A stretch of DNA of 64,000 bases, from assembly GCA_034928085.1 (NCBI GenBank), contig JAYFPG010000022.1:51456-115455 (forward strand), read 5' to 3'. Below are positions 3,165 through 59,005 of the stretch, piece after piece. The notes under the pieces were generated by a model. That model did not search any database and was not told the origin of the DNA. It saw nothing but the letters and a program-made list of their open reading frames with translations. Every line of letters starts with the position of its first letter. Position 1 is the stretch's first letter. A program made the position numbers and the translations under genes. This DNA is from Paludibacter sp. (GTDB lineage Bacteria > Bacteroidota > Bacteroidia > Bacteroidales > Paludibacteraceae).

Positions 3165-5384
3165 TTATTTTACGTATTCAAATGAACCTGAACATCTTAT
3201 GTCGTCAGAAGCAGCTCCTGCAAATACCTTGAAATTTCCGTCCTCAACCTCCCATTGTTGACTTTTTTCGTTGTAGAATTGCAACGCTGTTTTATCTATA
3301 CTGAATGTTACGCTTTGTTCTTCTCCGGGATTCAAGTAGACCTTTTTAAACGATTTTAGTTCTTTTACGGGTCTGACAACAGTCGATTTCTCGTCGTTTA
3401 TGTATAGCTGAACGATTTCGGATCCAGCCCGGGTTCCGGTGTTTTTAATCTTCAGTGATATTTCAATGCTGTCGTTGTTCTGAATTTGTTTCCTGTTGAG
3501 GGCTAACTTGCTATACTCAAAAGAGGTATAGCTTAGTCCGTGACCAAATGCGAACAGGGGTTTTAATTTTTTATATTCAACCCAACGGTATCCTACGAAA
3601 ATATCTTCTTTATAATTTACCTCTTCTTTGGTTCCCGGGAATTCCCCCAGACAGTGTGCGCTGTTATCCTCCAAACGAACCGGGATTGTAAAGGGTAATT
3701 TCCCCGAGGGGTTAACATCACCAAAAAGAACCGAAGCCAAGGCGTTACCTGCCTCAGAGCCAGCATACCATCCATAAACGACAGCAGGTGCTTTGCTGAC
3801 CCAGGGCATCGTTACAGCGTTCCCACAGATTAGGATCACAACAGTATTGGGATTTACTCTTACCAATGCCTCAATAAGTTCGTTTTGACTATAAGGCAGA
3901 TCCATTGATTCGCGATCCTCACCTTCGGCATCTTGTTTTTTGTTTTTATTCAATCCACCAACGAAAATTACATAATCAGCTTGTTGGGCAACTTCAACAG
4001 CTTCTTTTAGGAGCTCATCCGCGGTTTTTCCTGTGGTGTTAATATTGATTTTACCCATGGGGTCATCTTTTCGTTCACCATAACTCTCATATCCCCGGGC
4101 ATATTGAATTTGGATGCTATCGCCAACACGTTTAAGTATGCCTTCTAAAGGAGTAACCTCATATTTAGCTTTCAAGGAAGAACTGCCACCTCCAATAGTC
4201 ATTTTTCTTGTTGCATTTTCTCCGATGACAACGATTTTATTGATTTTCTTTGTTTCAATTGGTAAGATTTGCCTCTCATTCTTTAACAAAACAATACCTT
4301 CCTGAGCAACTTTCTTTGCAACCATGGCATGCTCATTGGTTCCAAAAGTTCCAAAATAACGCTCTGAAGCCATATTTGTCCTGAAAATAAGTCGCAAAAT
4401 CCTTCTTACTTTATCATCGAGTTCTTTGGTTTCTATTTCACCATTTTGAATAAGTCTTAAATAAGGCTGTGCTAAGAAGTAGTTTTGATAGGCATTACTT
4501 GCACCCATTGTCAATCCATCTGTCCAGGTGCCAAATTCCATGTCAAGTCCGTTGCTGATGGCTAATTTTGTATCATAAACACCTCCCCAGTCAGAAACAA
4601 CGACCCCATCGAACTTCCAGTCTCGTTTAAGGATATCGTTTAATAAATATTGGTTATGACAACATTGCTCACCTTTATATTTGTTATATGCGCCCATAAT
4701 TGCCCATGCTCCTGCTACTTCCACAGCCGTTTTAAAAGCAGGTAGATATATTTCATGTAATGCCCTGTCGCTTACTTTCACATTTACCGAATGTCTGTAA
4801 GTTTCCTGATTATTAACAGCAAAATGTTTTACACAGGCTGCAACACCATTTTTTTGAACAGATTTGATATAAGGCACGACCATTTTTGAAGCCAGATATG
4901 GGTCTTCTCCCATGTATTCGAAATTCCTTCCATTGAGTGGAGACCTGTAGATATTAACACCAGGACCTAACAATACATTTTTATTGCGATACCTGGCTTC
5001 TTCGCCAATTGCATTTCCATAAATAGCCGACATTTCTGTATTCCAAGAGGCGGCCAGGCAAGTAAGCGCGGGGAAAGCAATACAGGAGTCATTTGTCCAA
5101 CCTGCTTGTTTCCATTCATCCCACAATACTTCTGCCCGAATACCATGAGGTCCGTCCGTCATCCAGTTTTCCGGAATACCCAACCGTGGTACACCTGCTG
5201 AACTGAATTTTGATTGCGCATGACAGATGGCAACTTTTTCTTCTAAGGTCATTCTCGATAAAGCATCTTCTATGCGCTCTTCAATATTTCTGTTTAAGTC
5301 GAGGTAAATTGGTTTTTGGGCAATTAAAACGATTGATATTATAGATAAAATGGTTATAAAAAAAAACTTTCTATATAGATTCAT
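3165..5384 (-). CDS. Glycoside hydrolase family 3 beta-glucosidase with C-terminal Fn3-like domain
   Basis: TDGPHG, GRNFEY.GEDP, KHF and VVSDW motifs. Start moved to MNLYRK (ATG at 5384), which gives a signal peptide; the ORF-track extension is Cys-rich and implausible. Confidence 0.93.
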   Translation of the reverse strand: MNLYRKFFFITILSIISIVLIAQKPIYLDLNRNIEERIEDALSRMTLEEKVAICHAQSKFSSAGVPRLGIPENWMTDGPHGIRAEVLWDEWKQAGWTNDSCIAFPALTCLAASWNTEMSAIYGNAIGEEARYRNKNVLLGPGVNIYRSPLNGRNFEYMGEDPYLASKMVVPYIKSVQKNGVAACVKHFAVNNQETYRHSVNVKVSDRALHEIYLPAFKTAVEVAGAWAIMGAYNKYKGEQCCHNQYLLNDILKRDWKFDGVVVSDWGGVYDTKLAISNGLDMEFGTWTDGLTMGASNAYQNYFLAQPYLRLIQNGEIETKELDDKVRRILRLIFRTNMASERYFGTFGTNEHAMVAKKVAQEGIVLLKNERQILPIETKKINKIVVIGENATRKMTIGGGSSSLKAKYEVTPLEGILKRVGDSIQIQYARGYESYGERKDDPMGKININTTGKTADELLKEAVEVAQQADYVIFVGGLNKNKKQDAEGEDRESMDLPYSQNELIEALVRVNPNTVVILICGNAVTMPWVSKAPAVVYGWYAGSEAGNALASVLFGDVNPSGKLPFTIPVRLEDNSAHCLGEFPGTKEEVNYKEDIFVGYRWVEYKKLKPLFAFGHGLSYTSFEYSKLALNRKQIQNNDSIEISLKIKNTGTRAGSEIVQLYINDEKSTVVRPVKELKSFKKVYLNPGEEQSVTFSIDKTALQFYNEKSQQWEVEDGNFKVFAGAASDDIRCSGSFEYVK

Positions 5385-5480: not shown

Positions 5481-6611
5481 TTATCGATATCCTTTTATTC
5501 GAAGATAACTAATTACATTTTCACAGATGTCGGTTTGAATCATACGAACATCCCCGTTTATCAAGTTATCCATCTGAGAGAAATCTCCGGATATAAATGT
5601 GTTCTCAAAATCACTATCAAGAATGTTGACTGAAACAAGCATACCTCTTTTGGTTGCATCTATCATGCTGTTTTGTCCCACTTGTGAAAAGTCAAACTGT
5701 AAGAAAAATGGTCTGGGATAGTTTAATAATTGTTCGTAATTTGTGAGCGAACCTCCCCATGGGTATGCATGCGCATTCAAAGAAAGCTGAAACAATTCAT
5801 TTACATAGGCAGGTTTATTTCCGGTGTAAAAGAAGCACCTGTCAATCATTCCGCATTCATTCACAATGTTGAAAATACCGGTTGTTGAAGCATCGCGAGG
5901 CGAGTAATCAATGTTATATAAGATTCTTCCTCTTCCAGCTAAGAGTGCCTCCTTTAGTGTTGGCATTACTGCATTTGTCGGATTCCCATTCAGATCCCTG
6001 AGTTTAAATTGTCGAATTTCATTTAGCGTTAAATCTGCAATTTTTCCGGATCCTGTAGTTGTTCTGTTGATGGTGGGGTCATGACAAACCACAATTTGCC
6101 CGTCTTTTGTCACATAAGTATCAATTTCAACAACATCCACACCTGCTTTAAAACAGGCCTGAATTGCCGCAATTGAATTCTCTGGTATTGTTTTGTTTGC
6201 TGTTGTTCCCCTATGGGCCATGACCCATATTTTGTCGTTTTGTTTTAATTCTTTTAGTTTATTCGTCAACCCAAATCCTTCAACTTTCAACGAGCTTTCA
6301 CAGAAAACTTCTTTGCCTGTACTACTGATGAATGATGCCTTGATTATATATGTTCCATCTTTTTCGTAAGATTTGTAGTTTAATGCATCTGAGGATTCTG
6401 TTCCATCACCAAAGTCAAAGTGTAAATCCTTGATTTTTTTTGGCATATTGTGAAGTTTAATCGTAATTACTTCACCTTGTGCCGGAAAACTATTGCTCAA
6501 TGAGATAGAGACTTCACCTAATGTGATGTCATCCTCTTCATTGCAAGCATAAAAAACAAATACGGAAAAGAAGAATATAAAAATTAATGTTATCGATTTC
6601 TTATGAACCAT
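5481..6611 (-). CDS. Lipoprotein with PKD-like domain and GDPD domain
   Basis: Lipobox FYAC followed by acidic NEEDD; FDFGDG (PKD); MAHRG, VEID, CHD and IQTD (GDPD). Confidence 0.88.
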   Translation of the reverse strand: MVHKKSITLIFIFFFSVFVFYACNEEDDITLGEVSISLSNSFPAQGEVITIKLHNMPKKIKDLHFDFGDGTESSDALNYKSYEKDGTYIIKASFISSTGKEVFCESSLKVEGFGLTNKLKELKQNDKIWVMAHRGTTANKTIPENSIAAIQACFKAGVDVVEIDTYVTKDGQIVVCHDPTINRTTTGSGKIADLTLNEIRQFKLRDLNGNPTNAVMPTLKEALLAGRGRILYNIDYSPRDASTTGIFNIVNECGMIDRCFFYTGNKPAYVNELFQLSLNAHAYPWGGSLTNYEQLLNYPRPFFLQFDFSQVGQNSMIDATKRGMLVSVNILDSDFENTFISGDFSQMDNLINGDVRMIQTDICENVISYLRIKGYR

Positions 6612-6658
6612 ATTGACAAGCTTATTATTATGCAGATTTGAACAGAAGAGTTTAATCC

Positions 6659-6690
6659 CCGGCAGATTTCTTCATACATAAATCTGCCGG
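6659..6690. repeat. Intergenic stem-loop, copy 1 of the GGCAGATTT/AAATCTGCC family
   Basis: ccggcagattt-N10-aaatctgccgg, perfect 11-bp stem, no U-tract on the minus strand. Confidence 0.7.
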
Positions 6691-6701
6691 AGATGAGAGA
6701 A

Positions 6702-8276
6702 TTATTGTTTAATAATTCTTTTTGCAATATTATTAACTAAAACAACATATAACCCTTTGGGAAAATTTGTAACGTCAATACTTTCAATATTTTCAGCACA
6801 ATTAATTTGTTTGTATGTTTTTCCATTGATGTCGAATAACGATATCTTTGCTCCTTCTGCTCCCAGTACATTGAAATTGTTTGTTACAATGGTAGGATAC
6901 ACAACAAATGCTTCCATCTGTTTAGTTTCATTTGTTGTCGTTACACCTGTGTATTGGAATGCACCAACAGAAACGGGTTCAATAGTCGGACGAGCAGTTC
7001 CTCTACCATCTAATGCTAAGTCGGAAGTAGTGAAAATATTGTTAATTACACTATCAGTATAATTTTGAATCTTTGTCAGTGTTGAACCTGTTATGTTCTC
7101 TTTTAAAGCGATGGTTTGGGGGTAACCTGTATTGTTTGCTAAAACATTACTTCCAAAAACAGCACTATATTGTTTATTTAATGAATCAGTTGATTGAGAG
7201 ATTAAAGTGCCGGTACCGCCAACTTTACCGAACACGTTGTTGCCATTAGAGGTAAAGTTATATGCAGTGCCATTAATGAAAATGCTTGGGTTTGTCTCAT
7301 CACTATTTGTAATGATACTATTGTATGCGAAAACTTTGTTGGTAGATTCCATCCGGATATCAAGTCCAACCGTTAGATTTTTTGTACAGGTATTATTTGC
7401 AACGGTTGATGAAATTAAATATAACCATCCTGCTCCGTTCAAACCTCCACCTCCGGTTCCAACAGAATTGTTTGCAATTGTTGTGTTTATACAGAAAGTT
7501 TTACATTCCGCAGCACCGAACATGATGGCTCCTGACCAGTCACCGGTATTGATATTGCCTGATAACTGGCAGCGTTCAAGAACTAACCTGTCAGTATGAT
7601 CATATACCCGGATTGCGGCACCTCTGTTAGCAACGACATTATCTGTGAAAACAGTTGCATAACAGTAGACAATTGCTTTGTTTGTGAACAAACCTGCTCC
7701 TCCGGCGTTGATATGGTAAGTTATATCAGATTTGTTGTTTGTAATAACACAGTATAATATGTCACATTGTGAACCATTCAATACCTGAATTCCGGGTCTC
7801 AAGGTGGCTGTGCTGTTTGCATAGCCGTTTGTAAATGTTATCCCTTTAAGTGTTACTTTCTCCGGAGAGTTAATAGTGACCAATCTCGCATCTCCGGCAT
7901 TGGGTATTCCATCATTGTTCAAGTCTCCGCTGATGATAGTCGGCGTTAACGAAGGATAGCTAATTTCCGGCACGGTAGTTCCGCTCAGTGAAGGGTCAAA
8001 ACCTCCAATAATAGAAATTCCATTGATAATGTTCATAGTGACTGAAGATGACGCTGGTTTGTAGGTCCCACCAGTCATGTAAATTACGTCTCCTTCTTCA
8101 AAATCACTCGCAAGTTTTGTAATTAAATTATCAAACGACAGAGCGTCATCCCACGATAATCCTGTACCTGTACCATCAGTTTTTACAAAATAATTTGTTG
8201 CAGTTACCTGCATACTCAAAATAAAACAAAATGTGAAAATGCAAATTGCAATACTGGTGAAATTTAATTTTTTCAT
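6702..8276 (-). CDS. T9SS-secreted right-handed beta-helix (pectin-lyase-like fold) protein of unknown activity
   Basis: Signal peptide; N/T/I-rich coil repeats (ITNNKS, FTDNVV, LSGNIN, IANNSV; GAG/GAAI/GGG turns); C-terminal VYPT...LFDINGK...KGLYVV...KRIIKQ CTD. Confidence 0.75.
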   Translation of the reverse strand: MKKLNFTSIAICIFTFCFILSMQVTATNYFVKTDGTGTGLSWDDALSFDNLITKLASDFEEGDVIYMTGGTYKPASSSVTMNIINGISIIGGFDPSLSGTTVPEISYPSLTPTIISGDLNNDGIPNAGDARLVTINSPEKVTLKGITFTNGYANSTATLRPGIQVLNGSQCDILYCVITNNKSDITYHINAGGAGLFTNKAIVYCYATVFTDNVVANRGAAIRVYDHTDRLVLERCQLSGNINTGDWSGAIMFGAAECKTFCINTTIANNSVGTGGGGLNGAGWLYLISSTVANNTCTKNLTVGLDIRMESTNKVFAYNSIITNSDETNPSIFINGTAYNFTSNGNNVFGKVGGTGTLISQSTDSLNKQYSAVFGSNVLANNTGYPQTIALKENITGSTLTKIQNYTDSVINNIFTTSDLALDGRGTARPTIEPVSVGAFQYTGVTTTNETKQMEAFVVYPTIVTNNFNVLGAEGAKISLFDINGKTYKQINCAENIESIDVTNFPKGLYVVLVNNIAKRIIKQ

Positions 8277-49172: not shown

Positions 49173-49793
49173 TTATTTGATAAGTTTTAATCCTGTGGTT
49201 GCCGATTCATCATTGGGTCTGAGTGTCATAGCGTGATTGAAAAGAATGCCGGCCTCCGCCTGTTTACCAAGATTCAGCTTTGTCCACGCCAGCATAATGA
49301 CTGAATCGTAATCAAGTGGATACAGATTTACAACTTTCTCAAACAGTTTTACCGCGTTCTGGTAGTCTTTTTTGTTGTAGTAAATGACACCGAGCCAGTA
49401 GTTCGCAACCGTGTTTTGTGGGTCAATTTTCAGAATCTGATGATATTGTTGCTTGACTTTTTCCCATTGTTCAGTTGCGCTATAGGGTTTCACAATACCG
49501 AATCGTGCTTCAATTGAATAGGGCTTTAGTCTGATGGCATTGAGGTAGAATTTTTCAGCTTCAGCATGTTGTCTGGATAAATAATGAAGCCAACCCATGC
49601 GGATATTAGCAAAATAATCTTCAGATTTATAGACTTTTTTTAATTCTGAGATGGCTTGTGCATATTTACCTGTCTTTTCAGCTTCATAGCTTTTGTAAAA
49701 GGCCTGTTGCCAAACTGTCTGATTCTGTGCTCCTGTAGTCATTGCTATAAAAAGCAGGCACGCGGTAACTGTTTTTCGAATTATATTTTCCAT
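49173..49793 (-). CDS. Exported tetratricopeptide-repeat protein
   Basis: Signal peptide; TPR-like helices (AEKFYLNAIRLKP, ILKIDPQNTVANYWLG, FEKVVNLYP). Confidence 0.8.
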   Translation of the reverse strand: MENIIRKTVTACLLFIAMTTGAQNQTVWQQAFYKSYEAEKTGKYAQAISELKKVYKSEDYFANIRMGWLHYLSRQHAEAEKFYLNAIRLKPYSIEARFGIVKPYSATEQWEKVKQQYHQILKIDPQNTVANYWLGVIYYNKKDYQNAVKLFEKVVNLYPLDYDSVIMLAWTKLNLGKQAEAGILFNHAMTLRPNDESATTGLKLIK

Positions 49794-50950
49794 ATCAAAC
49801 CTCCTGTAATTGAATGTTGGTTGTAGAATAAATTATCCGTGAATATTTTTTTTGTATCGTAGTTGTAATTCAAATAAATCGTCAGGGGCTTGCACAGATA
49901 CCAAAATCCTGAAATGCCCGTCCTGAACGTGGTCGGATCAAGCGAGTTGTAAAAGTATAAGCCATTATTGTCAATGAATTGATTGAGATTGCCCACGTTT
50001 ACATAAGCTTCTGTCCACATTCTATTGAAGAGCATAATTCCGGCCGTTTGTTTAAAAACATTTCGTCCATAACTGTAATCCAAACCTGTTTCGACAATTC
50101 TGTAGTAAGAGCTTGTCAGGTTTATGTTGTTACTTCCGGCAAAATTAACACCCAGATGTACCCCCAGTTGTTTAGAGTCGAGCCATTCATTTTTAAAAGA
50201 TGCGCCCGACAACGCCAGATCGAAACGGTTCAGTTGTTGTGTTATTTTCCCGTAAAAGATATTTCCGGGATAGTTGAAAGTGTCGGCGCCATAGACCACC
50301 TTTGAACCAACATAGTGATAGCCGATGCTGATGTTGGTTTTTGCGGCCGGATTCCATCCCAATAAAACAAAATACTCATTCTGACGGGTTTGTGTTGTAT
50401 CCGTACTTTGGTTGAAATTGGAGAAACTCTGATATAAGTTTAATTTGTATCCAAGCTGACTGTTCAGTCCGAGACGTTTGTAATGACCCTGATGGGTGGA
50501 AGGATTATCAGGCATTTTATAGCTATACTCCAGATCAACTGCATCGGTTAAACGGTATTGTTTTTCCCTGACTTCTGTCAGCGTAATTTCAGAAAGCTGC
50601 GATGCCTGGAATCTGGCAAAGGCTGTTCTGCCCGTATATACGCCATTGTAATAAAGATATAACCGGGATATTTCATCATCATCATAATCTAATGCTTTCT
50701 CGTAATGTCGCATACTTTTGTAATACTGTTTTTTTACAAAATATGCATATCCCACCCGTTGCTGAAGCCATTTAAAGTCAATATTATTCTTTTTAGCCAG
50801 CTCAGCTGTTTCAATCAGTCCATCCCAATCACCGGCGTTGAACTGAACGTAGCTCAGACTGTCAATAGAGACAATCGAAACCTGATTGTTTGCATAACTA
50901 AGTAAACTGTAAAAAAACAGCAAAAGCACAATTATCCTGACTGATTTCAT
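49781..50950 (-). CDS. Exported protein with N-terminal TPR and probable outer-membrane beta-barrel
   Basis: Signal peptide; TPR-like GYAYFVKKQYYKSMRHYEKAL; alternating amphipathic strands ending ...ITGGLIWKI; overlaps the TPR gene. Confidence 0.6.
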   Translation of the reverse strand: MKSVRIIVLLLFFYSLLSYANNQVSIVSIDSLSYVQFNAGDWDGLIETAELAKKNNIDFKWLQQRVGYAYFVKKQYYKSMRHYEKALDYDDDEISRLYLYYNGVYTGRTAFARFQASQLSEITLTEVREKQYRLTDAVDLEYSYKMPDNPSTHQGHYKRLGLNSQLGYKLNLYQSFSNFNQSTDTTQTRQNEYFVLLGWNPAAKTNISIGYHYVGSKVVYGADTFNYPGNIFYGKITQQLNRFDLALSGASFKNEWLDSKQLGVHLGVNFAGSNNINLTSSYYRIVETGLDYSYGRNVFKQTAGIMLFNRMWTEAYVNVGNLNQFIDNNGLYFYNSLDPTTFRTGISGFWYLCKPLTIYLNYNYDTKKIFTDNLFYNQHSITGGLIWKI

Positions 50951-50956
50951 CTGTTC

Positions 50957-53149
50957 TTATATGAGTCTTTTTGCCTGAATTACTTTCTTGCCCGAAATAT
51001 ACTCAAAAGAATCGAGACCCTGTTGGTTTATTTTGATTTTACTTTTAGCCAGAATTGATTTTCTTCCAAAGGTTGTAATGGTAATCTCAGTTCTAATCTC
51101 AATTTCAGAGGTATCAAGCATATGATCAATTTTTTCAACTTTCTCACAATAACCCGCCTTCAGGAAATTAAAAAATGGTGCAGTGAAGTCGTTTAGACTG
51201 CTTATCAGCTTCTTATTCTCCAGTAAATGAATCGGGATATTATCATTTATCGGTATATTGCTGTCTGATAATAGTATTTTATAAGCAGATAAGAAAAAAT
51301 AATAAAGCAACGATTTGCGGTTTCCGTAGAACGCTGTAAAATAGAACATCATGTTGTCGCAGGTATAGTAAGCAACTGCATCTGTTTCCCGGCTGTGGAG
51401 GTATTTGTAGTTCAATGCATCTGTATATGCATCCCAATGTTCTGTCTTTTCGTTACCCTTCTCATCCCGGGTATATATTTTCAGACCGGTATCTGGTAAT
51501 AGGTTGAACGCGTTAAACAGGAAGGGTTGCTGACGCAGGTTGGCAACTAAGGTTTTTTCCACTGGTATTGAGAATTGTTCCAGACGTTTATGCTGTAAGT
51601 TGATAAAATAAGAGATGGGGTAATCAACCGTTTTTGAACCGATGACCGGATAATGTTGCAGTTGAAAATGCAGGTGTGGATAAGGTGAGCGTCCTGAGTT
51701 TCCACATTGCGCCACTGCATCTCCACATTTTACGAAATCCCCCTTTTTTACCTTAACTGAACCCTTTTTAAGATGTGAGAGTTGTGAATATAAACCGGTT
51801 ATGTGTTGAATGACAAGGCTGTTCCCCCAGTTATTAGTCGTGTTGACTTCACCAATAGCATTGTCTTCGATATGATCGACAATATCCACGATGAACCCAT
51901 CAGCTGGAGCCGTAACCGGTTTTCCGTAGCAATAATAATCCTCACATGTCAGACCGGCTGATTTGTAGGATTTTCCTTCTTCATTCAGGATCATGAAATC
52001 AAATGCTTTGCCCCATTCATCTTTATGGGTAAATGCGCCATCATGTCCCTGAGTTACTGTCCATTCTCCCCAGAATGGCAGTTGCACCGGATGGTACAAA
52101 AACCGGTTCAGCCGTTCTTTGTTGTTCAAATATGCATATAAATTCGTTTCAGGCGAATAATGCTGAATGGGTGTGAGAATCAATTTCTTCTGATTGTTCC
52201 GCTGTTGCAGGAAATGTACAAACAGGATTGTGATGATGGAGTAGGGCAGCGAAAAAACCGGAAGTTGTATCAAACTAAAGAGTTTTGTGAAAAAAACCAG
52301 CACGATGGATGTCAGCGGAACCAACAGGATGGTCCAGAAATAGGATGATTTTGATGGTATGACAAAGAATCCACCCATGGCAATGGCAACCATCATGAAA
52401 TTCGCCCCAATATTATAATAGGTAATGCTGGCAGCTTCCGATCCGGAGAATTGAGCAAAGATATAGGCTGATATAAAGCCGATTACTGATAATGAAAAAA
52501 ATATGCGAGAACTGATGAGTAAGGCAATGGCAATGACAATGCCGGTTATCAGGTTGTTCTGGAAGAAAATAGAACTCAGTGAACGCAAATAAATTTCGAG
52601 TAAGCTGTTTAATTCCCAGGATTCGATGTATTGGTAAATAGAGAGCAGTGAGTTTCCGCCTACTGAATACAATTCGTTAATCCAGAATATGTTACGTTGG
52701 GTCAGACCAAGATTCTCATACAGGGAGGATGGAAGCACGACAAACCAGAAAGCCAAAATAAACGGGATACTCAGATAGGGTAGACCATATTTAAACAACC
52801 ACCCACCCAATGCAACCGATAATATCAGCGTAAGCACCGACGAAAGCGCGAGCAGGGTAAAAAAAACGATACCCGGGTCGAAGAAAGTCCCCAGGCCGAT
52901 ACCGGTTATCAATGCATTAAAGCTTAATACGCCATTGCGTAGCTGAACCTTATCAAAACCTAAGGAGTTTGCCAGCAAAACAGCTATAAGTACCGCAATC
53001 AATCCACTCAATCCTGCATAGAAATTGAGGAAAGTAGCCACCATGACTGCTATTGCCATGAAACGGTTATTCAGAAAAAAGATGATGGAATAACTGTTTA
53101 AGATGGCCGGGAGAATTGTTTCACGGGTGTTTTTGAATGTATCTTTCAA
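50957..53149 (-). CDS. Urea-transporter-like membrane domain fused to an M23 peptidase-like domain
   Basis: Hydrophobic N-half (NSYSIIFF, SSIFFQNN..TG, LPVFSLP); soluble HKDEWGKAFDF, GKPVTAPADG, WGNSLVIQH, YSQLSHL, GNSGRS..PHLHFQLQ; TTG start. Confidence 0.78.
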   Translation of the reverse strand: MKDTFKNTRETILPAILNSYSIIFFLNNRFMAIAVMVATFLNFYAGLSGLIAVLIAVLLANSLGFDKVQLRNGVLSFNALITGIGLGTFFDPGIVFFTLLALSSVLTLILSVALGGWLFKYGLPYLSIPFILAFWFVVLPSSLYENLGLTQRNIFWINELYSVGGNSLLSIYQYIESWELNSLLEIYLRSLSSIFFQNNLITGIVIAIALLISSRIFFSLSVIGFISAYIFAQFSGSEAASITYYNIGANFMMVAIAMGGFFVIPSKSSYFWTILLVPLTSIVLVFFTKLFSLIQLPVFSLPYSIITILFVHFLQQRNNQKKLILTPIQHYSPETNLYAYLNNKERLNRFLYHPVQLPFWGEWTVTQGHDGAFTHKDEWGKAFDFMILNEEGKSYKSAGLTCEDYYCYGKPVTAPADGFIVDIVDHIEDNAIGEVNTTNNWGNSLVIQHITGLYSQLSHLKKGSVKVKKGDFVKCGDAVAQCGNSGRSPYPHLHFQLQHYPVIGSKTVDYPISYFINLQHKRLEQFSIPVEKTLVANLRQQPFLFNAFNLLPDTGLKIYTRDEKGNEKTEHWDAYTDALNYKYLHSRETDAVAYYTCDNMMFYFTAFYGNRKSLLYYFFLSAYKILLSDSNIPINDNIPIHLLENKKLISSLNDFTAPFFNFLKAGYCEKVEKIDHMLDTSEIEIRTEITITTFGRKSILAKSKIKINQQGLDSFEYISGKKVIQAKRLI

Positions 53150-53220: not shown

Positions 53221-54567
53221 TTATTTCAAATGTCCCGGAACTTCTTCCAGAGAATCAATGTACTCCATGGTTTCTGCTTTTCTTATGATATGTGTATTAT
53301 TATCAGCGTCAATCAGCACAATATTTGGTCTTAGTGTGATGAACTGCATCCACTGGGTCATGTTGTAGGCACCGACCTGGTGTACAACCAGTTGATTCCC
53401 TTTTTCGAGTAAGGGCATCACGATACTTTCGCGTACGATGTCGATATTCATACACAAAGGACCGTATAACACCATCTCTTCCGTTTGCTGGCCCATGGGT
53501 TGAGCCGGACTGACCTTGTGCTCATACCAAAGTGATGTAAACAAAGTGTTGAGGCCGAAGTCAAGAATGGTGGCCCGGCGTCCGTCGGATAAACGTTTGG
53601 TTGCCAATACAGTTCCAAGCAGGTAACCCGCATCGTCAATCAGGGCGCGACCACTTTCCAGAATCAACAAAGGCAGTTCGTCCTGACTGAATCCATATCC
53701 TAAAATGACATCGGTTATAGCATCCGCAAACTGGTCCAGCGAAGGTACCGTGTCTGTCCCCGGAAGATAAGCACCTTTCAGGGTGTTGGTTGAAGGGAAA
53801 CCGCCTCCCAGATCAAGGTATTGCAACATTTTGCCATATCGTTCTTTTACACTCCAGGCCAACTCGCAAAGATTTCTGGCAGCTGTTGCGTAGGCATTGG
53901 GTGATAACATGAAAGTGCCGATGTGGCAATGCAGTCCCACCAAATCAAGGTTCGGGGAGTTGAGAATCCGGGTAAGTGCATTCCAGGCCTGACCATTTTC
54001 AAAATTAAAACCAAACCGGTCCCATTTAGGGTAAATTCCGGTATCCATATTGATGCGAATGGCAACTCGGGGCCTGAGTTTATGCTCATCACTCAAACGA
54101 AGCAGCGTATAAAGTTCATCGTAATGGTCGATGTGAATGAGTGAGTTGTTTTTAGCTGCTACTAACAGTTGCTCATCACTTTTATCCGGGCCGTTGAAAA
54201 TAATTTGGTTACCCGGTACCCCGTTCTGCAGGGCTTTGTCGTATTCAAATCCGGATACGACTTCCGCCCATGAGCCTTCCTGATGAAATATCTGACAAAC
54301 TGCGTCTAAATAGTTAGTTTTATACGACCAGGCAAATTGAACTTTAGGGTACCGGGTTTTAAAAATTCTGGAGGCATTCTGAAAGTTTCTTCTGATTTGT
54401 TTCTCTGAAATAACAAATAACGGAGAACCATATTCTTTTAATAGTCCCTTTACTGAAACACTTTCGATGTGTGTAACCGGTTCATTCTCTGTTTTAGTGC
54501 CGAATTTATTCATCAACCCTGTGTTCATTTTTCGCAAGGTCGGTCTTTCGTATCTTTTCTTTTCCAT
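53221..54567 (-). CDS. Fold-type III PLP decarboxylase (LysA/Orn-DAP-Arg family) with N-terminal extension
   Basis: YGSPLFV, WSYKTN (PLP Lys), IIFNGP.K, GLHCHIG, LDLGGGF, ESGR, GPLC, VGAY. Confidence 0.85.
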   Translation of the reverse strand: MEKKRYERPTLRKMNTGLMNKFGTKTENEPVTHIESVSVKGLLKEYGSPLFVISEKQIRRNFQNASRIFKTRYPKVQFAWSYKTNYLDAVCQIFHQEGSWAEVVSGFEYDKALQNGVPGNQIIFNGPDKSDEQLLVAAKNNSLIHIDHYDELYTLLRLSDEHKLRPRVAIRINMDTGIYPKWDRFGFNFENGQAWNALTRILNSPNLDLVGLHCHIGTFMLSPNAYATAARNLCELAWSVKERYGKMLQYLDLGGGFPSTNTLKGAYLPGTDTVPSLDQFADAITDVILGYGFSQDELPLLILESGRALIDDAGYLLGTVLATKRLSDGRRATILDFGLNTLFTSLWYEHKVSPAQPMGQQTEEMVLYGPLCMNIDIVRESIVMPLLEKGNQLVVHQVGAYNMTQWMQFITLRPNIVLIDADNNTHIIRKAETMEYIDSLEEVPGHLK

Positions 54568-54612
54568 GACAAATGCCTCCAGAATTTTAAAGTTATCTCT
54601 TTATTGTTGACA

Positions 54613-55419
54613 TCATTCTACAGCAGGCAATTCTAATTCGCCTAAATTAACATCAACCCCACCGATTACATCGAGATCTTCTATCAGGGTATTGGTTATT
54701 CCTGTTTGCAGATTCTCGCTCATAATATCATATGTTCCACTATAAAGTCCGTGCAATACAAATAAATTGTTTAGCAAGGTATCAGAGACAGTTGCGATTG
54801 TGTCTCCTGCTGTATTGGTGGTGAAAATTCTTGTGGCTACATCAGCAGGTAATAATGTTCCGTATATTTTGGAAGAATTTGCTGTGATGTATGCCCTAAT
54901 CACTGGTTTAAGCAGGTATTCACCGTTGCCCTTGAAGACAATTGAGCGTGATGCATCAAAATCAATGACGACTTTATAACCACTTGTGACTTCAGCATTT
55001 GATTGTACATTCAGCTTTAATCCCGACTGTTGTGCACTTGGAGTCTGTATTGGCAGTATAGAACTGTCACTTAACATAATTGTGTTATTGTCACCTAATA
55101 TAAGTCTCACCTGATGAATCTTCATTCCTGTTTCGAGTTCAATATTAGATAATAATGTGTCTTTGCCGTTAGAGAAATCTAATAAATTTATCACAGCCGG
55201 ACTGATAGGGAGATCCACCCAGGATCCTTCACCTTCTTCTTCGGCATTAACAGAATACCTGATGGCCTGTACATCTACATTAACGGCCAGAATGCCTTGG
55301 TCGGCAGGTGCGTCGGTAAGATAAAAACCCACTGTTTGTTTGTCAGTTGTATTACATGCAACGAATAATACAGCTATAAGTGATGCGAATACTAATTTTG
55401 TTGTTTTCATTGTTTTCAT
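54613..55419 (-). CDS. DUF4382-like lipoprotein
   Basis: Lipobox VAC; LTDAP, INLLDFSNG, RLILG.NN, TPSAQQSGLKL, DFDASRSIV..G...LKPVIR. Confidence 0.75.
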   Translation of the reverse strand: MKTMKTTKLVFASLIAVLFVACNTTDKQTVGFYLTDAPADQGILAVNVDVQAIRYSVNAEEEGEGSWVDLPISPAVINLLDFSNGKDTLLSNIELETGMKIHQVRLILGDNNTIMLSDSSILPIQTPSAQQSGLKLNVQSNAEVTSGYKVVIDFDASRSIVFKGNGEYLLKPVIRAYITANSSKIYGTLLPADVATRIFTTNTAGDTIATVSDTLLNNLFVLHGLYSGTYDIMSENLQTGITNTLIEDLDVIGGVDVNLGELELPAVE

Positions 55420-55543
55420 TTTTTTAGTTAAACAATTAATAAAGTAATTTTTTAGTTTTGGTTTACGTTCAGCTGAAAGTAAAATCTGGTTGTTTTTGTT
55501 AGTTAACTATCTTTTTATGTACTTTTCTATAATTATAACTCTC

Positions 55544-56587
55544 CTATAACTCTCCGTTTCCGGAAATCATTTGAAACTCCTTGATGTCAGTAATTAAATC
55601 CCAGGCATAACGGATGAAAATTTTCCCTACTTCATACGTTTTAAACGGTTCAACTTTCTCACCCATCGCCATCTTAACCAAACTGGCCGGTTGGTTTTGT
55701 CCAGCTCCGGCTGTAAGGTAAATCCAGGCCGGGAATCTCGGATTTACTTCCATGATGTAGGGTTTACCGTCATCGGTGAGCATTACTTCCAGTTCGCACC
55801 CCCCCCGCCATTTGGTTGTTTCAATGAATTTTCGGGCAAGTTCCACCAGTTTATCATCTTCTAACGTAATGCCAGCCCATGCTTTGCCTTTGTCGGTGAT
55901 GTAAAGTTTACGCATGGGGATGATGCTGATGGCATTGCCATCGCCATCACCCAGTGCCGCGATGTTTATCTCTGTTCCTTTTATAAACTCCTGCATGATG
56001 ATGGGTAATCCCCATTTAGCCATGATTTTGAGAAATGCTTTTTCCGCCTGATCGTAACTGCGGGCAATTACAGCATCATAAAATTTACCTTTTACAACGA
56101 TAGGATACTCCAAATCATCCTCCATTTTCTTCAACTCGCGAAGCTCATGTAATATCTTATCTTCAGGTACCAGAAATCCATGTTTCTGTCCGAATTCGAA
56201 TAATTTCATTTTATCTCTGGCCTCAAACTGATTTAATTCGGGCAGGAAAGTGCGTATTCCAAGTCCCTTTAACTTGTCTCTCAGCTTAATGAAATTATAG
56301 AGTTCTGCATCGAAATTTGGAATAATCAAATCCAGTTTTTCCTGTTCATGGATATACATCAGTCTGGCATACAAACTATCGGTACCGCCCGATGGATAAG
56401 GAATCTGATAAGTTTTGTCGACCAGATCGTGCATGTACAGTCCCGGCTCTAACGCTTCATAGGAAAGTCCGATAATTTTAACATCGAAGTCCGTACATTC
56501 CCGGATGGCTCGAATCACGGCGACACCTGGTCCCGGACTGTCGATGGCATTTAATGCAGTAACGGCTATGACGATTTGTTTTCTCAT
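55544..56587 (-). CDS. ATP-grasp carboxylate-amine ligase of unknown substrate
   Basis: LIIPNFDAEL, YPIVVKG, IMQEFIKGTE, ELEVM...YIMEVNPRFPAW. Confidence 0.85.
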   Translation of the reverse strand: MRKQIVIAVTALNAIDSPGPGVAVIRAIRECTDFDVKIIGLSYEALEPGLYMHDLVDKTYQIPYPSGGTDSLYARLMYIHEQEKLDLIIPNFDAELYNFIKLRDKLKGLGIRTFLPELNQFEARDKMKLFEFGQKHGFLVPEDKILHELRELKKMEDDLEYPIVVKGKFYDAVIARSYDQAEKAFLKIMAKWGLPIIMQEFIKGTEINIAALGDGDGNAISIIPMRKLYITDKGKAWAGITLEDDKLVELARKFIETTKWRGGCELEVMLTDDGKPYIMEVNPRFPAWIYLTAGAGQNQPASLVKMAMGEKVEPFKTYEVGKIFIRYAWDLITDIKEFQMISGNGEL

Positions 56588-56593
56588 GTTCGG

Positions 56594-56833
56594 TTATTCG
56601 AGTATGCTGTAATCTTTTAATAATCCTGTAAACTCATCGAGGTCACGTTCAAGTAACAAACGGTCGACATCGTAATTTTCACTGATCTCTTCAATAATTT
56701 CAGATGTTGACTTATCCTGTTTCAATAAGCTGATAATTTCCGAACCGATTCCATTTGTTGAAAATGAATCTCCGGTCGCAGGATTAAACAGAAATCCCTC
56801 GTCGCTTACGGCTATGTTTTTACGTATTCTCAT
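56594..56833 (-). CDS. PqqD-family / RiPP recognition element (RRE) protein
   Basis: 79 aa; beta-strands (IAVSDEGFLFNPATGDSFSTN) followed by three helices (GSEIISLL, EIIEEISENYDV, LERDLDEFTGLLK); start moved to MRIRKN (56833). Confidence 0.82.
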   Translation of the reverse strand: MRIRKNIAVSDEGFLFNPATGDSFSTNGIGSEIISLLKQDKSTSEIIEEISENYDVDRLLLERDLDEFTGLLKDYSILE

Positions 56834-56929: not shown

Positions 56930-59005
56930 TCAAAGTATAATTTTTTCAGTAAACTCCCCGATTTTTACCACGAAGATTCCCCTGACGGGAAGATAAATGT
57001 TCATTGTTTCAGTGCTTGCTTTTTGTTTGGTGATTGATAGACCATGCAAACTGTAAATTTCAATCCAATCGCCCGGAGTCAGGTTTCTAATGGATAGCCC
57101 ATCGCGGGTTCTAAAGCATCGGCAGGATTGTTGGGAGGGCATATGAGCCGAAGTGTTGAAATCGACTTCTGTTATAGTAAGAAATTCTCCCCAATAGGGT
57201 GCGTCGGCGTATAAAGTACGGGAAGCTGTTGGTACCATTAACGTACAGCTTGTTTTGTTGATTAAATCTAAGGTGTAATAATCAACAACAGGTGGAAGCG
57301 ATTTAGCAACTCCTATATTAGTTAAATTTGAACAGGCATAAAAAGCGCCTGCCCCTATTGAATCTGTGCTTTGCGGTATTGTTAAACTGGTGAGTCCTGT
57401 ACAATATTCAAAAGCATATGCCCCAATTTTCTGAATATTCTGTGTTAGATTTATCTCTGTTAGTTTATTGCAACCGTCAAATGCAGCATACTCAATTTGT
57501 TTTACTGATGACGGAATGGAGTATTCACCCGCTTTACTTAATGGGCACAAATAAAGCTGTTCCTGATTTTTGCTGAATAAAACGCCATCTGTGGCGCTAT
57601 AATATTGATTGGCGCCGTCGACGGTGAATCCGCTGATGGCAGTGCAATTATAAAAAGCATATTCACCAAGATAATTCAGGGAAGCGGGAAAATGAATGTT
57701 GCCAGTAATACCTGTGCAATTATTAAAGGCTCCCGGGTCGATAGTAACCGTATTCCCGGGTATGGTGATGTTACCGGTTTTAGTTGTTGGGCAAATGATG
57801 ATTCTGTCCTTAGATTTTGAATGCAAAATGCCATTTTCAGCCGTAAAATAAGGGTTGAGCGCATTCGCTGCATAAGCCCCGATCTGACTGCAACCGTAAA
57901 ATGCATAATATCCAATATAATCGGTTAGCTGTGGGATGGTGATGGTGCCGGTCAGTTTGGAACATTTATAAAAAGCGTGACTTCCTATCAACTTAACAGA
58001 ATTAGGGATGGTAAATGTACCTGTTTTAGCGCCGGGACAAATAAACAAAGTATCAAGATTTTTGCTGTACAAGACGTCATTGGAGGCTGTATAATCGGGG
58101 TTTGCGGCATTTACGGTAAAGGATTTCAGGTTATTACATTCTAAAAAGCAATACATGCCAAGATTTGTCAGGCTTGCCGGTATGGTTACGGTACCGGTTA
58201 AGTTGTAACAGCCGTAGAAGCTGCCATCACCCAGTGATGTAACTCCGTTTGGGATTGTGAGGTTCCCGGAAATGCCCGAACAGTAGGCAAATGCGTATGT
58301 GCCTGTTGAAATTAATGAACTTGGTAATGTTACAGTTGTAAGATTATAGCAGTTCTCGAAAGCTGAATTGGCAATATGTTTTACTGTGGCCGGGATGGCG
58401 TAATTTCCGGTTTTAGCATTCGGGCATACGAACAGCGTGTCTTGCATTTTGTTGAATAGAATACCGTTTGAGCTGCTGTATCTGGTGTTTGAGCTGTTTA
58501 CTGAAAATGAATTTAATGCATAACATCCGTAAAAAGCATAGTCCCCAATTGATTTCACTTTAGCCGGAATACTTATTGAGGTCATATTCCAGCAATAATA
58601 AAATGCAAGTTCACCAATCGATGTGATAGTTGGAGGAAGCGTGACCATTGTCAACGACGGTTTGTATGATAGTAATGCAGGATTGTAAAAGGCGTAGGCC
58701 GGAAACTCATTTGCAGGATAGTTTATCTGTGTACCGGTGTTGGTTCCATCGGTTCCACTATAAGAATTTATAACGGCATCGGTAAAATTCAGTGAGGATA
58801 CTTTCTTTACCTCATCCCGGATGAAAGCGATGTCCCTGGCGTCAATATTTCCGGCAACCGACAGATTTATAAGATTAGTCCGGTCACTTTCATTTAAATA
58901 AGCAGAAAGAGTTCCGGCGGTTGTTACATACACCGATTTGGAAATTTGAGCTTGTAATGTAAGGAAAGATAATACGCAAAACGTCAATAAGAGTGATTTT
59001 TTCAT
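56930..59005 (-). CDS. BspA-like leucine-rich-repeat surface protein with probable T9SS CTD
   Basis: Many LT.ITIP.SV..IG..AF..C repeats; four V...N..Y....GVL.SK....L..CP inserts; C-terminal EIYSLHG...GIFVVKI...KIIL. Confidence 0.9.
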   Translation of the reverse strand: MKKSLLLTFCVLSFLTLQAQISKSVYVTTAGTLSAYLNESDRTNLINLSVAGNIDARDIAFIRDEVKKVSSLNFTDAVINSYSGTDGTNTGTQINYPANEFPAYAFYNPALLSYKPSLTMVTLPPTITSIGELAFYYCWNMTSISIPAKVKSIGDYAFYGCYALNSFSVNSSNTRYSSSNGILFNKMQDTLFVCPNAKTGNYAIPATVKHIANSAFENCYNLTTVTLPSSLISTGTYAFAYCSGISGNLTIPNGVTSLGDGSFYGCYNLTGTVTIPASLTNLGMYCFLECNNLKSFTVNAANPDYTASNDVLYSKNLDTLFICPGAKTGTFTIPNSVKLIGSHAFYKCSKLTGTITIPQLTDYIGYYAFYGCSQIGAYAANALNPYFTAENGILHSKSKDRIIICPTTKTGNITIPGNTVTIDPGAFNNCTGITGNIHFPASLNYLGEYAFYNCTAISGFTVDGANQYYSATDGVLFSKNQEQLYLCPLSKAGEYSIPSSVKQIEYAAFDGCNKLTEINLTQNIQKIGAYAFEYCTGLTSLTIPQSTDSIGAGAFYACSNLTNIGVAKSLPPVVDYYTLDLINKTSCTLMVPTASRTLYADAPYWGEFLTITEVDFNTSAHMPSQQSCRCFRTRDGLSIRNLTPGDWIEIYSLHGLSITKQKASTETMNIYLPVRGIFVVKIGEFTEKIIL

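Follow-up and report, generated by a model that had tools for sequence, protein, structure and literature searches.

RiPP (ribosomally synthesised and post-translationally modified peptide) recognition elements (RREs) that occur as discrete proteins in lasso peptide pathways recognise the motif [Y/W]xxPx[L/V/I/F/A] (PMC13381572), and YxxP has also been given as the lasso recognition sequence (PMC12710340). In the related protein LppB, the leader Tyr is hydrogen-bonded by D70, while its Pro is sandwiched by F74 and has its kink fixed by N33; the replacements N33A and D70A each impair leader binding (PMC13381572). Here we describe the same motif at the N-terminus of an enzyme, a pyridoxal phosphate (PLP)-dependent decarboxylase of Paludibacter sp. 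(phylum Bacteroidota) encoded within a stretch of 64,000 nucleotides (assembly GCA_034928085.1, contig JAYFPG010000022.1, positions 51,456 to 115,455), which is referred to below as the window. A sequence-only reading of this DNA had noted a YxxPxL motif in the decarboxylase and had named it as the one bound by PqqD-like RREs in lasso leaders, in agreement with the two papers cited above. The same operon encodes a 79-residue PqqD-family protein that, judging from comparative sequence analysis, most probably binds the decarboxylase tail.

Among described systems, the lasso B1 RREs (TbiB1 with TbiA, TfuB1/FusB1 with FusA, PbaB1 with PbaA) and LppB with its leader LppA share this motif, and the Asn of the Pro kink, the Asp that meets the Tyr hydroxyl and the Phe that divides the cleft lie at the same aligned positions in the protein studied here. 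In those systems, however, the motif is carried by a short precursor, whereas here it stands on a 448-residue, active-looking enzyme. Pfam and NCBIfam scans of the operon proteins found no match to a B2 transglutaminase-like protease, to an asparagine-synthetase-like lasso cyclase or to a kinase. Lasso leaders also follow a penultimate Thr rule (PMC10368454). Both this Thr and the lasso Gly are absent from the decarboxylase, as had been remarked before, and G17-x2-N20-K21-F22-G23 is conserved in their place. The tail itself was considered as a lasso precursor and rejected: it has the motif, but neither a Thr at −2 nor a core, and a 418-residue enzyme follows the G-x2-N-K-F-G block.

Butirosin biosynthesis (BtrI, BtrJ and BtrK) likewise joins an ATP-grasp enzyme to an alanine-racemase-fold PLP decarboxylase of the DAPDC/FigC clade, which acts on a tethered substrate; in contrast to butirosin, no acyl-carrier protein is found here, and a PqqD-type RRE and the decarboxylase tail stand in its place. 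The fosfazinomycin proteins FzmZ, FzmA and FzmT and the pearlins similarly combine an RRE with YxxP, a possible small-molecule product and a precursor that is hard to see. FzmZ, however, is a free 21–22-mer that is built upon at its C-terminus, whereas a whole enzyme follows the motif here, so that chemistry could take place only on a side chain. Leaders have also been fused by engineering to a lanthipeptide synthetase and a cyanobactin heterocyclase, which made these enzymes constitutively active. Such fusions likewise place the leader covalently on a pathway enzyme, with the recognition site permanently occupied; they are, however, products of the laboratory, and their leader binds the very enzyme that carries it, whereas the present arrangement is natural, ancient and widespread, and a separate RRE would bind. 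We found no description of the operon in papers that pair PqqD with ATP-grasp and decarboxylase, with urea transporters or with Bacteroidetes, and no curated NCBIfam model covers its RRE, ligase or decarboxylase.

The decarboxylase carries an N-terminal tail outside its fold

The central features of the window, all on the minus strand, are as follows.

53221-54567, minus strand: PLP-dependent alanine-racemase-fold decarboxylase, 448 residues (Pfam, NCBIfam and PDB matches; AlphaFold2 model)
54478-54567, minus strand: N-terminal tail of the decarboxylase, residues 1-30 (MEKKRYERPTLRKMNTGLMNKFGTKTENEP), predicted to be disordered when alone, conserved in sequence
54535-54552, minus strand: Y6-E-R-P9-T-L11, RRE-recognition motif of the form [Y/W]xxPx[L/V/I/F/A] (codons: Y6 54550-54552, P9 54541-54543, L11 54535-54537)
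54499-54519, minus strand: second conserved block, G17-L-M-N20-K21-F22-G23, in which K21 (54505-54507) is at +15 from the Tyr
56594-56833, minus strand: PqqD-family RRE of the lasso-B1 type, 79 residues, starting MRIRKN (PF05402; leader-reading residues N27, D64 and F68)
55544-56587, minus strand: ATP-grasp ligase, 347 residues, starting 6 nt past the PqqD stop codon

The translation of the open reading frame (ORF) at 53221-54567 begins MEKKRYERPTLRKMNTGLMNKFGTKTENEP, and its codons 1-22 (54500-54567) encode MEKKRYERPTLRKMNTGLMNKF; the motif is thus present at Y6, P9 and L11, where it had been reported. Both PF02784 and PF00278 (ornithine/diaminopimelate/arginine decarboxylase family 2) matched the protein above their gathering scores, and its TIM barrel plus beta-sandwich identifies it as a PLP decarboxylase of the alanine-racemase fold. 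The best matches for residues 31-448, in sequence and in structure, are FslC/FigC and LysA. The scores stayed below the curated cut-offs for FslC (NF041039, 228 bits against 500) and for LysA (TIGR01048, 213.6 against an equivalog cut-off of 297.9), so by these models the protein is neither LysA nor FslC. Among PDB chains, the N-citrylornithine decarboxylase 7KH2 came closest (E=1.4e-59), and LysA enzymes and BtrK ranked next; the BtrK match (E about 6e-23) was far weaker than that to FslC (1e-59). The enzyme falls with the DAPDC/FigC/SbnH/MccE/BtrK clade, whose non-LysA members decarboxylate amino acids that have first been joined to a carrier protein, to citrate or to a peptidyl-nucleotide (PMC7857480). 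By analogy, the adjacent ATP-grasp ligase would be the natural maker of such an amino-acid conjugate. The partner expected from the FslC pathway, a siderophore synthetase of the NIS type (one that works independently of nonribosomal peptide synthetases), is not encoded in the operon.

Pfam, NCBIfam and PDB matches to LysA and FslC begin at residues 28-41, those of the two NCBIfam models at 28-34, and the tail is covered by none of them. In the AlphaFold2 model (mean predicted local distance difference test score, pLDDT, 88.6) a confident LysA-like fold starts at about residue 31. Residues 1-30 are all coil, with pLDDT values of 56, 40 and 61 for successive blocks of 10 residues, and do not pack onto the enzyme body. 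The N-terminal extension proposed by the sequence-only reading therefore exists, although the 45 residues given for it were too many: alignment starts and AlphaFold2 agree on about 30.

The tail is conserved and under purifying selection

To follow the tail across related operons, one genome per GTDB species was scanned, which returned 80 loci with decarboxylases of 62-97% identity. These came from Paludibacter, Prolixibacteraceae, Lentimicrobiaceae, Pedobacter, Mucilaginibacter, Chitinophaga, Hymenobacter, Flavobacteriia and others. A second scan, of metagenomes and seeded with tail-less homologues, gave 80 more; about 170 loci were covered overall. L102, in which a disruption affects the 5' end of the decarboxylase ORF, was left out.

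The pattern (R/K)YERPx(I/L)xKMN(T/A)GLMNKFG is kept in all 120 close homologues, and the motif is at the identical position in 79 of the 79 readable Bacteroidota loci as well as in remote relatives that are 37-51% identical. When 1.8 billion cluster representatives were searched, proteins at 37-68% identity gave the same N-terminal alignment, with variants such as YEKPMI, YEKPTL, YVTPTI, YEPPRM, YTPPRL, YNPPDF and WAKPVI. Conservation of the motif thus spans identities between 97% and about 37%. An alignment of 17 homologues (33-67% identity) drawn from the best hits having an aligned N-terminus shows no change at Y6 or P9, and across 21 diverse tails P9 is invariant while Y6 and K21 are each kept in at least 90%. 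By an estimate from residue frequencies, one [YFW]xxPx[LIVMFA] is expected by chance within the first 15 residues of roughly 1% of proteins, and by this measure the conservation of the tail motif exceeds chance expectation.

Synonymous and non-synonymous differences from the window over the 79 loci numbered 35:0 at P9, 18:0 at K21, 35:2 at F22 and 50:0 at G23. At Y6 the ratio was 29:7, and all seven changes were Y to F. These codon counts plainly indicate that the tail is under purifying selection. The tail is highly conserved and yet forms no intramolecular structure, a combination characteristic of partner-binding linear motifs. A profile of the tail compared with PDB chains, aimed at leader peptides, gave two insignificant matches only.

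Lys occupies +15 in 48 of 67 distinct tails as counted, or about 80% after mis-registered tails are corrected, and it is kept where its neighbours differ (NKFG, QKH, DKLKG; loci with differing neighbours include L091, L103, L109, L116, L117, L095 and L096). Among the exceptions, four tails have Arg, six have Thr or Ser, and others have Pro or His. The motif also occurs within P0129 (871 residues), a natural ATP-grasp-decarboxylase fusion, as AYVRPSI in the linker between the domains (residues about 405-440).

Trp-type tails (WAKPVI, WKAPTI, WETPRI) were seen in P0140, P0157 and P0191 and at L173; the P0140 contig ends within the ATP-grasp gene.

The PqqD-family protein is of the lasso-B1 type

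The presence of an RRE in the same operon, as claimed from the sequence alone, was borne out by the 79-residue protein, which matched PF05402 at 45.3 bits, well over the cut-off of 23.4 (E=1.1e-11). When 24 PqqD proteins of such operons, distant ones included, were combined into a profile, it found TbiB1 (5V1U/5V1V, E=6e-15) and TfuB1 (6JX3, E=2.7e-10), with authentic PqqD (3G2B, E=2e-3) far behind. The AlphaFold2 model (mean pLDDT 74, with the sheet weaker) has helices at 28-38, 43-53 and 58-74 after short strands, which is the winged-helix arrangement of three strands and three helices typical of RREs. The top six Foldseek matches were the leader complexes of TbiB1 and TfuB1 (probability 0.99-1.00, template-modelling score about 0.6), to which the protein is 33-36% and 23% identical, respectively.

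HMMER aligned N27, D64 and F68 with G42, Q79 and F83 of PbaB1 and, through PbaB1, with N33, D70 and F74 of LppB. The PbaB1 chain offset of 18 used for this was verified on twelve residues named in PMC13381572. N27 is invariant across the family and D64 nearly so; the three residues that fix the Pro kink, bind the Tyr hydroxyl and divide the cleft are thus all present. In paeninodin-type RREs, which recognise WxxP, Gly and Gln take the places of N27 and D64. With N27, D64 and F68 conserved, the 79-residue protein is equipped to read a Tyr-x-x-Pro peptide. It stayed below the curated cut-offs for lasso and PQQ chaperones (scores against cut-offs: lasso_PqqD_Strm 25/70, lasso_PqqD_Bac 24/80, WgkC 27/110, PQQ_PqqD 16/46). 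Natural fusions of PqqD to the tail were also sought: all 120 PqqD homologues listed are stand-alone proteins of 79-97 residues.

Tail and PqqD gene occur together

Outside Bacteroidota, the tail is present in all 26 of the 26 distinct loci that have an adjacent PqqD gene, in one lineage as the variant YE(R/P)MTL. In 12 of 12 tail-bearing loci with no visible PqqD gene, the end of the contig cuts off the upstream side. Conversely, an adjacent PqqD gene was found in none of about 27 tail-less loci having at least 2 kb of upstream sequence. L084 and L108, the sole tail-less homologues with an adjacent ATP-grasp gene, have no PqqD. The motif is therefore kept in syntenic loci, and homologues that lack the tail have no adjacent PqqD gene, the outcome of the comparison of cluster-associated with other homologues that had been suggested as a check.

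The gene order remains recognisable in Proteobacteria-like and other lineages, and the tail accompanies PqqD despite rearrangement: PqqD, ATP-grasp, decarboxylase, urea-transporter-like (UT)-M23, a 287-residue protein and TPR in L083; TPR, PqqD, ATP-grasp, TPR, a 325-residue protein and decarboxylase in L087; TPR, PqqD, ATP-grasp, a second ATP-grasp-like protein, decarboxylase and UT-SIR2 in L090; and PqqD, double ATP-grasp and decarboxylase in L091. The assessable loci come from several phyla and show no exception to this co-occurrence, which matches the prediction of docking.

The sole PqqD match near any tail-less gene was an ORF at L136 (12784-13110, E=6e-10), non-adjacent at 5.5 kb downstream of the decarboxylase homologue. 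The YE(R/P)MTL lineage comprises L106 (decarboxylase ORF 5869-7269), P0263 and P0144, and has PqqD and a double ATP-grasp.

Tail residue 6 covaries with RRE residue 64

When the 446 x 79 column pairs between the two proteins were screened without bias, Y6-D64 came at rank 18 of 35,234 after average product correction, with a normalised mutual information of 1.0, and the two were reciprocal best partners. The signal comes from eight loci (L045, L057, L068, L070, L080, L104, L107 and L125) in which the tail reads FERP instead of YERP. RRE residue 64 is Tyr in all of them (seven scored by script, L070 read by eye), whereas in 92 loci with a Tyr tail it is Asp, except for one His; a Phe tail was never paired with Asp. 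Because these two residues touch in solved complexes, the switch is the most specific indication of contact that sequences provided here.

No conserved small ORF, and no further conserved copy of the motif outside a domain match

Over more than 80 syntenic loci, all ORFs of 18-130 residues, counted from start to stop, that lay within the cluster or close to it were collected and clustered. No conserved family of this size was found on the operon strand, which bears out the earlier statement that no free precursor is visible. The apparent families were antisense shadows of conserved neighbours and a response-regulator gene confined to Mucilaginibacter. Intergenic gaps in the window measure 6-124 nt. 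As no small ORF is conserved in this set, the precursor with a Ser/Thr/Lys- and Asp/Glu-rich core that a graspetide system would have beside the ligase was likewise not found.

Among the six conserved operon proteins, [YFW]xxPx[LIVMFA] is kept in at least 70% of orthologues at three places. The decarboxylase tail is the only one of these in an unstructured part of any operon protein. Another operon protein as the target of the RRE was rejected: the remaining two copies sit inside the Pfam matches to the ATP-grasp (residue 192) and M23 (residue 408) domains.

The operon and its neighbours

The remaining genes considered in the window are as follows.

54613-55419, minus strand: DUF4382 lipoprotein gene, a lineage-specific insertion between the ATP-grasp and decarboxylase genes
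50957-53149, minus strand: membrane protein of 730 residues with a urea-transporter-like channel domain and an M23 peptidase domain, conserved member
49781-50950, minus strand: signal-peptide protein of 389 residues with no family match, possibly outer-membrane, conserved member
49173-49793, minus strand: TPR protein of 206 residues with a signal peptide, conserved member
56930-59005, minus strand: BspA-type leucine-rich-repeat surface protein of 691 residues, directly upstream of PqqD

The order PqqD, ATP-grasp, decarboxylase, UT-M23, outer-membrane-like protein and TPR holds in every one of the 80 genome loci that reaches far enough. PqqD is translationally coupled to the ATP-grasp ligase, whose sole PDB relative is an uncharacterised carbamoyl-phosphate-synthase-like protein. 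Sludge metatranscriptome contigs join ATP-grasp, decarboxylase and UT, which is consistent with a single transcript, although assembled contigs can contain DNA. A scan for promoters and terminators with a sigma-70 model, which is ill-suited to Bacteroidota, returned counts at or below chance.

The DUF4382 gene was rejected as a member of the system. It is absent from all other loci, including L017, the decarboxylase of which is 97% identical, and belongs to a recent, lineage-specific insertion of 981 bp (54570-55550) that fits exactly between the stop codon of the ATP-grasp gene and the start of the decarboxylase gene. In its place, 17 other bases are present in L017 and in the metatranscriptome contigs, and the contigs, from a relative of roughly 92% identity, skip exactly this stretch. 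The leucine-rich-repeat gene, separated from PqqD by roughly 40-95 nt depending on the PqqD start, is common only to the closest Paludibacter loci (L002 and L017) and is probably outside the system.

Other variation was noted around the operon. In L002, the closest genome locus, about 1.7 kb is added between the decarboxylase and UT-M23 genes (3221-4955). Most lineages have the UT-like domain fused to M23; it is joined to SIR2 instead in L090 (6051-7922), and stands alone beside a separate SIR2 gene in L086 (3156-5006); two different amide-cleaving domains thus take the same place beside it. Two ATP-grasp modules precede the decarboxylase in several loci, fused into one protein of about 710-715 residues (L091, 416-2563; L109; L116; L106) or as adjacent genes (L090, 3570-4622; L095; L097), and the Bacteroidota version has one.

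Discussion

From the motif conservation, RRE type, synteny, co-occurrence and covariation observed here we infer physical binding, with a ternary complex, chemistry and export as its consequences. In the reading that we favour, with a probability of about 0.55, the operon RRE binds a disordered, leader-mimicking tail, ligase and decarboxylase are thereby held in a complex, a conjugate is decarboxylated and the product is exported. Residues 1-30 would be the leader mimic, of which a lasso-B1-type RRE would grip Y6, P9 and L11 in its beta3/alpha3 cleft, much as lasso chaperones do with leaders. Docking would bring the ATP-grasp ligase and the decarboxylase together; the ligase would amide-link an amino acid to an acceptor, and the decarboxylase would strip the alpha-carboxylate from the conjugated amino acid, as FslC, SbnH, MccE and BtrK do. 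For export, the product may then pass to the membrane protein, which combines a UT-like channel with an M23 domain (SIR2 in other lineages). The simplest model would be a non-covalent ATP-grasp/RRE/decarboxylase assembly that channels the conjugate. Docking of the RRE on the enzyme's own leader, as the sequence-only reading had proposed, is supported to the extent that all the computational tests run agree with its prediction.

Several observations weigh against this reading. When placed on a neighbour-joining tree, the Phe loci fall at the base of the Bacteroidota clade, in three groups that adjoin one another; the Tyr/Phe covariation therefore reflects one to three events and may derive from a single clade, which limits its weight, and F293 of the decarboxylase has almost equal mutual information with D64, as a clade marker would. 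Common descent within a single orthologous group accounts in part for the co-occurrence of tail and PqqD, and would be expected to produce much of it. One high-G+C lineage reads YE(R/P)MTL, with no Pro at +3. The motif is retained in the P0129 fusion, so tethering two enzymes cannot be its sole role, and RRE binding leaves the second block, G-x2-N-K-F-G, unexplained; the partner of this block may be the ATP-grasp enzyme, or the block may itself be a site of modification. Finally, the search for a precursor extended over the 64 kb window and over the flanks of related loci rather than the whole genome.

The fusion and the conserved Lys at +15 speak for an alternative in which the tail is a built-in carrier, in line with the second possibility named by the sequence-only reading, an N-terminus that is itself the modified substrate. 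The RRE would present the block, the ligase would acylate K21 with an amino acid through an isopeptide bond, and decarboxylation of the tethered residue, in the enzyme's own active site or that of its dimer partner, would be followed by release by M23 or SIR2, the enzyme being its own scaffold by RiPP or carrier-protein logic. We regard this as possible, though on balance unlikely. It draws on the Lys at +15, kept in about 80% of the 67 distinct tails despite differing neighbours and lying 9-10 residues beyond the recognition motif, where a core would begin; on the related BtrK, which acts on Glu tethered to the carrier BtrI after loading by the ATP-grasp enzyme BtrJ; and on YxxP scaffold peptides known for small-molecule assembly, such as FzmZ. 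The domain fused to UT alternates between two amide-cleaving types, the M23 peptidase and SIR2, a lysine deacylase, which would suit such a release. However, +15 varies among Lys, Arg, Thr/Ser, Pro and His, which argues against a universal nucleophile, the Arg variants favour a contact by charge, and one modified tail per enzyme molecule would make the reaction stoichiometric unless the tail were recycled. Still more tentatively, the whole could be a self-scaffolded machine in which the tail serves both as RRE leader and, through Lys +15, as a covalent swinging arm that the ATP-grasp ligase loads with an amino acid; the enzyme would decarboxylate the tethered residue, and a membrane-bound M23 or SIR2 domain would relieve the arm of its product before export through UT.

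A conventional precursor, encoded elsewhere or too small to be seen, could instead be the substrate of the RRE. The tail would then be leader-like only superficially and have another job, for instance to touch the membrane protein, the ATP-grasp enzyme or the dimer partner. Precursors as short as FzmZ, with its 21-22 residues, have escaped notice in the past, the search was confined to the scope given above, and a stand-alone RRE can be dispensable in vitro, as FzmT is. We nevertheless consider this improbable, since over more than 80 loci there was no conserved operon-strand ORF of at least 18 residues, with window gaps of 6-124 nt, the tail and the PqqD gene are gained and lost jointly, the Y/F-D/Y covariation falls on exactly the residue pair that touches in solved complexes, and the AlphaFold2 model shows no packing of the tail against the enzyme. 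Far less credible is a chance resemblance or a mis-called start, with the true start at M14 or M19 and the motif untranslated or non-functional. Some database entries (P0077 and P0112) do begin MNTGLMNKFG; but in codons 6-13 synonymous changes are many and non-synonymous ones almost absent, and the motif is kept at 37% identity, in other phyla and in the linker of a fusion protein. On these comparisons, this last explanation is effectively already refuted.

On the docking reading, leader/RRE recognition would have been transplanted onto an enzyme in a precursor-less, phylum-wide operon; the carrier model, if right, would be close to categorically new. RREs are treated as a hallmark of peptide natural-product pathways, and genome-mining tools use them in this way. 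If an RRE recognises the tail of an enzyme, RRE matches with no precursor need not be failed annotations: they may mark systems of enzyme assembly or self-scaffolding, and the leader/RRE pair would be a portable module for docking one protein on another. A self-scaffolded machine, if true, would be a new route of small-amine synthesis that merges RiPP, carrier-protein and transport logic in Bacteroidota and beyond. The operon is very common across Bacteroidota and is found in non-Bacteroidota lineages, with no described product, and a 30-residue peptide and a 79-residue protein offer a direct experimental handle on this widespread pathway.

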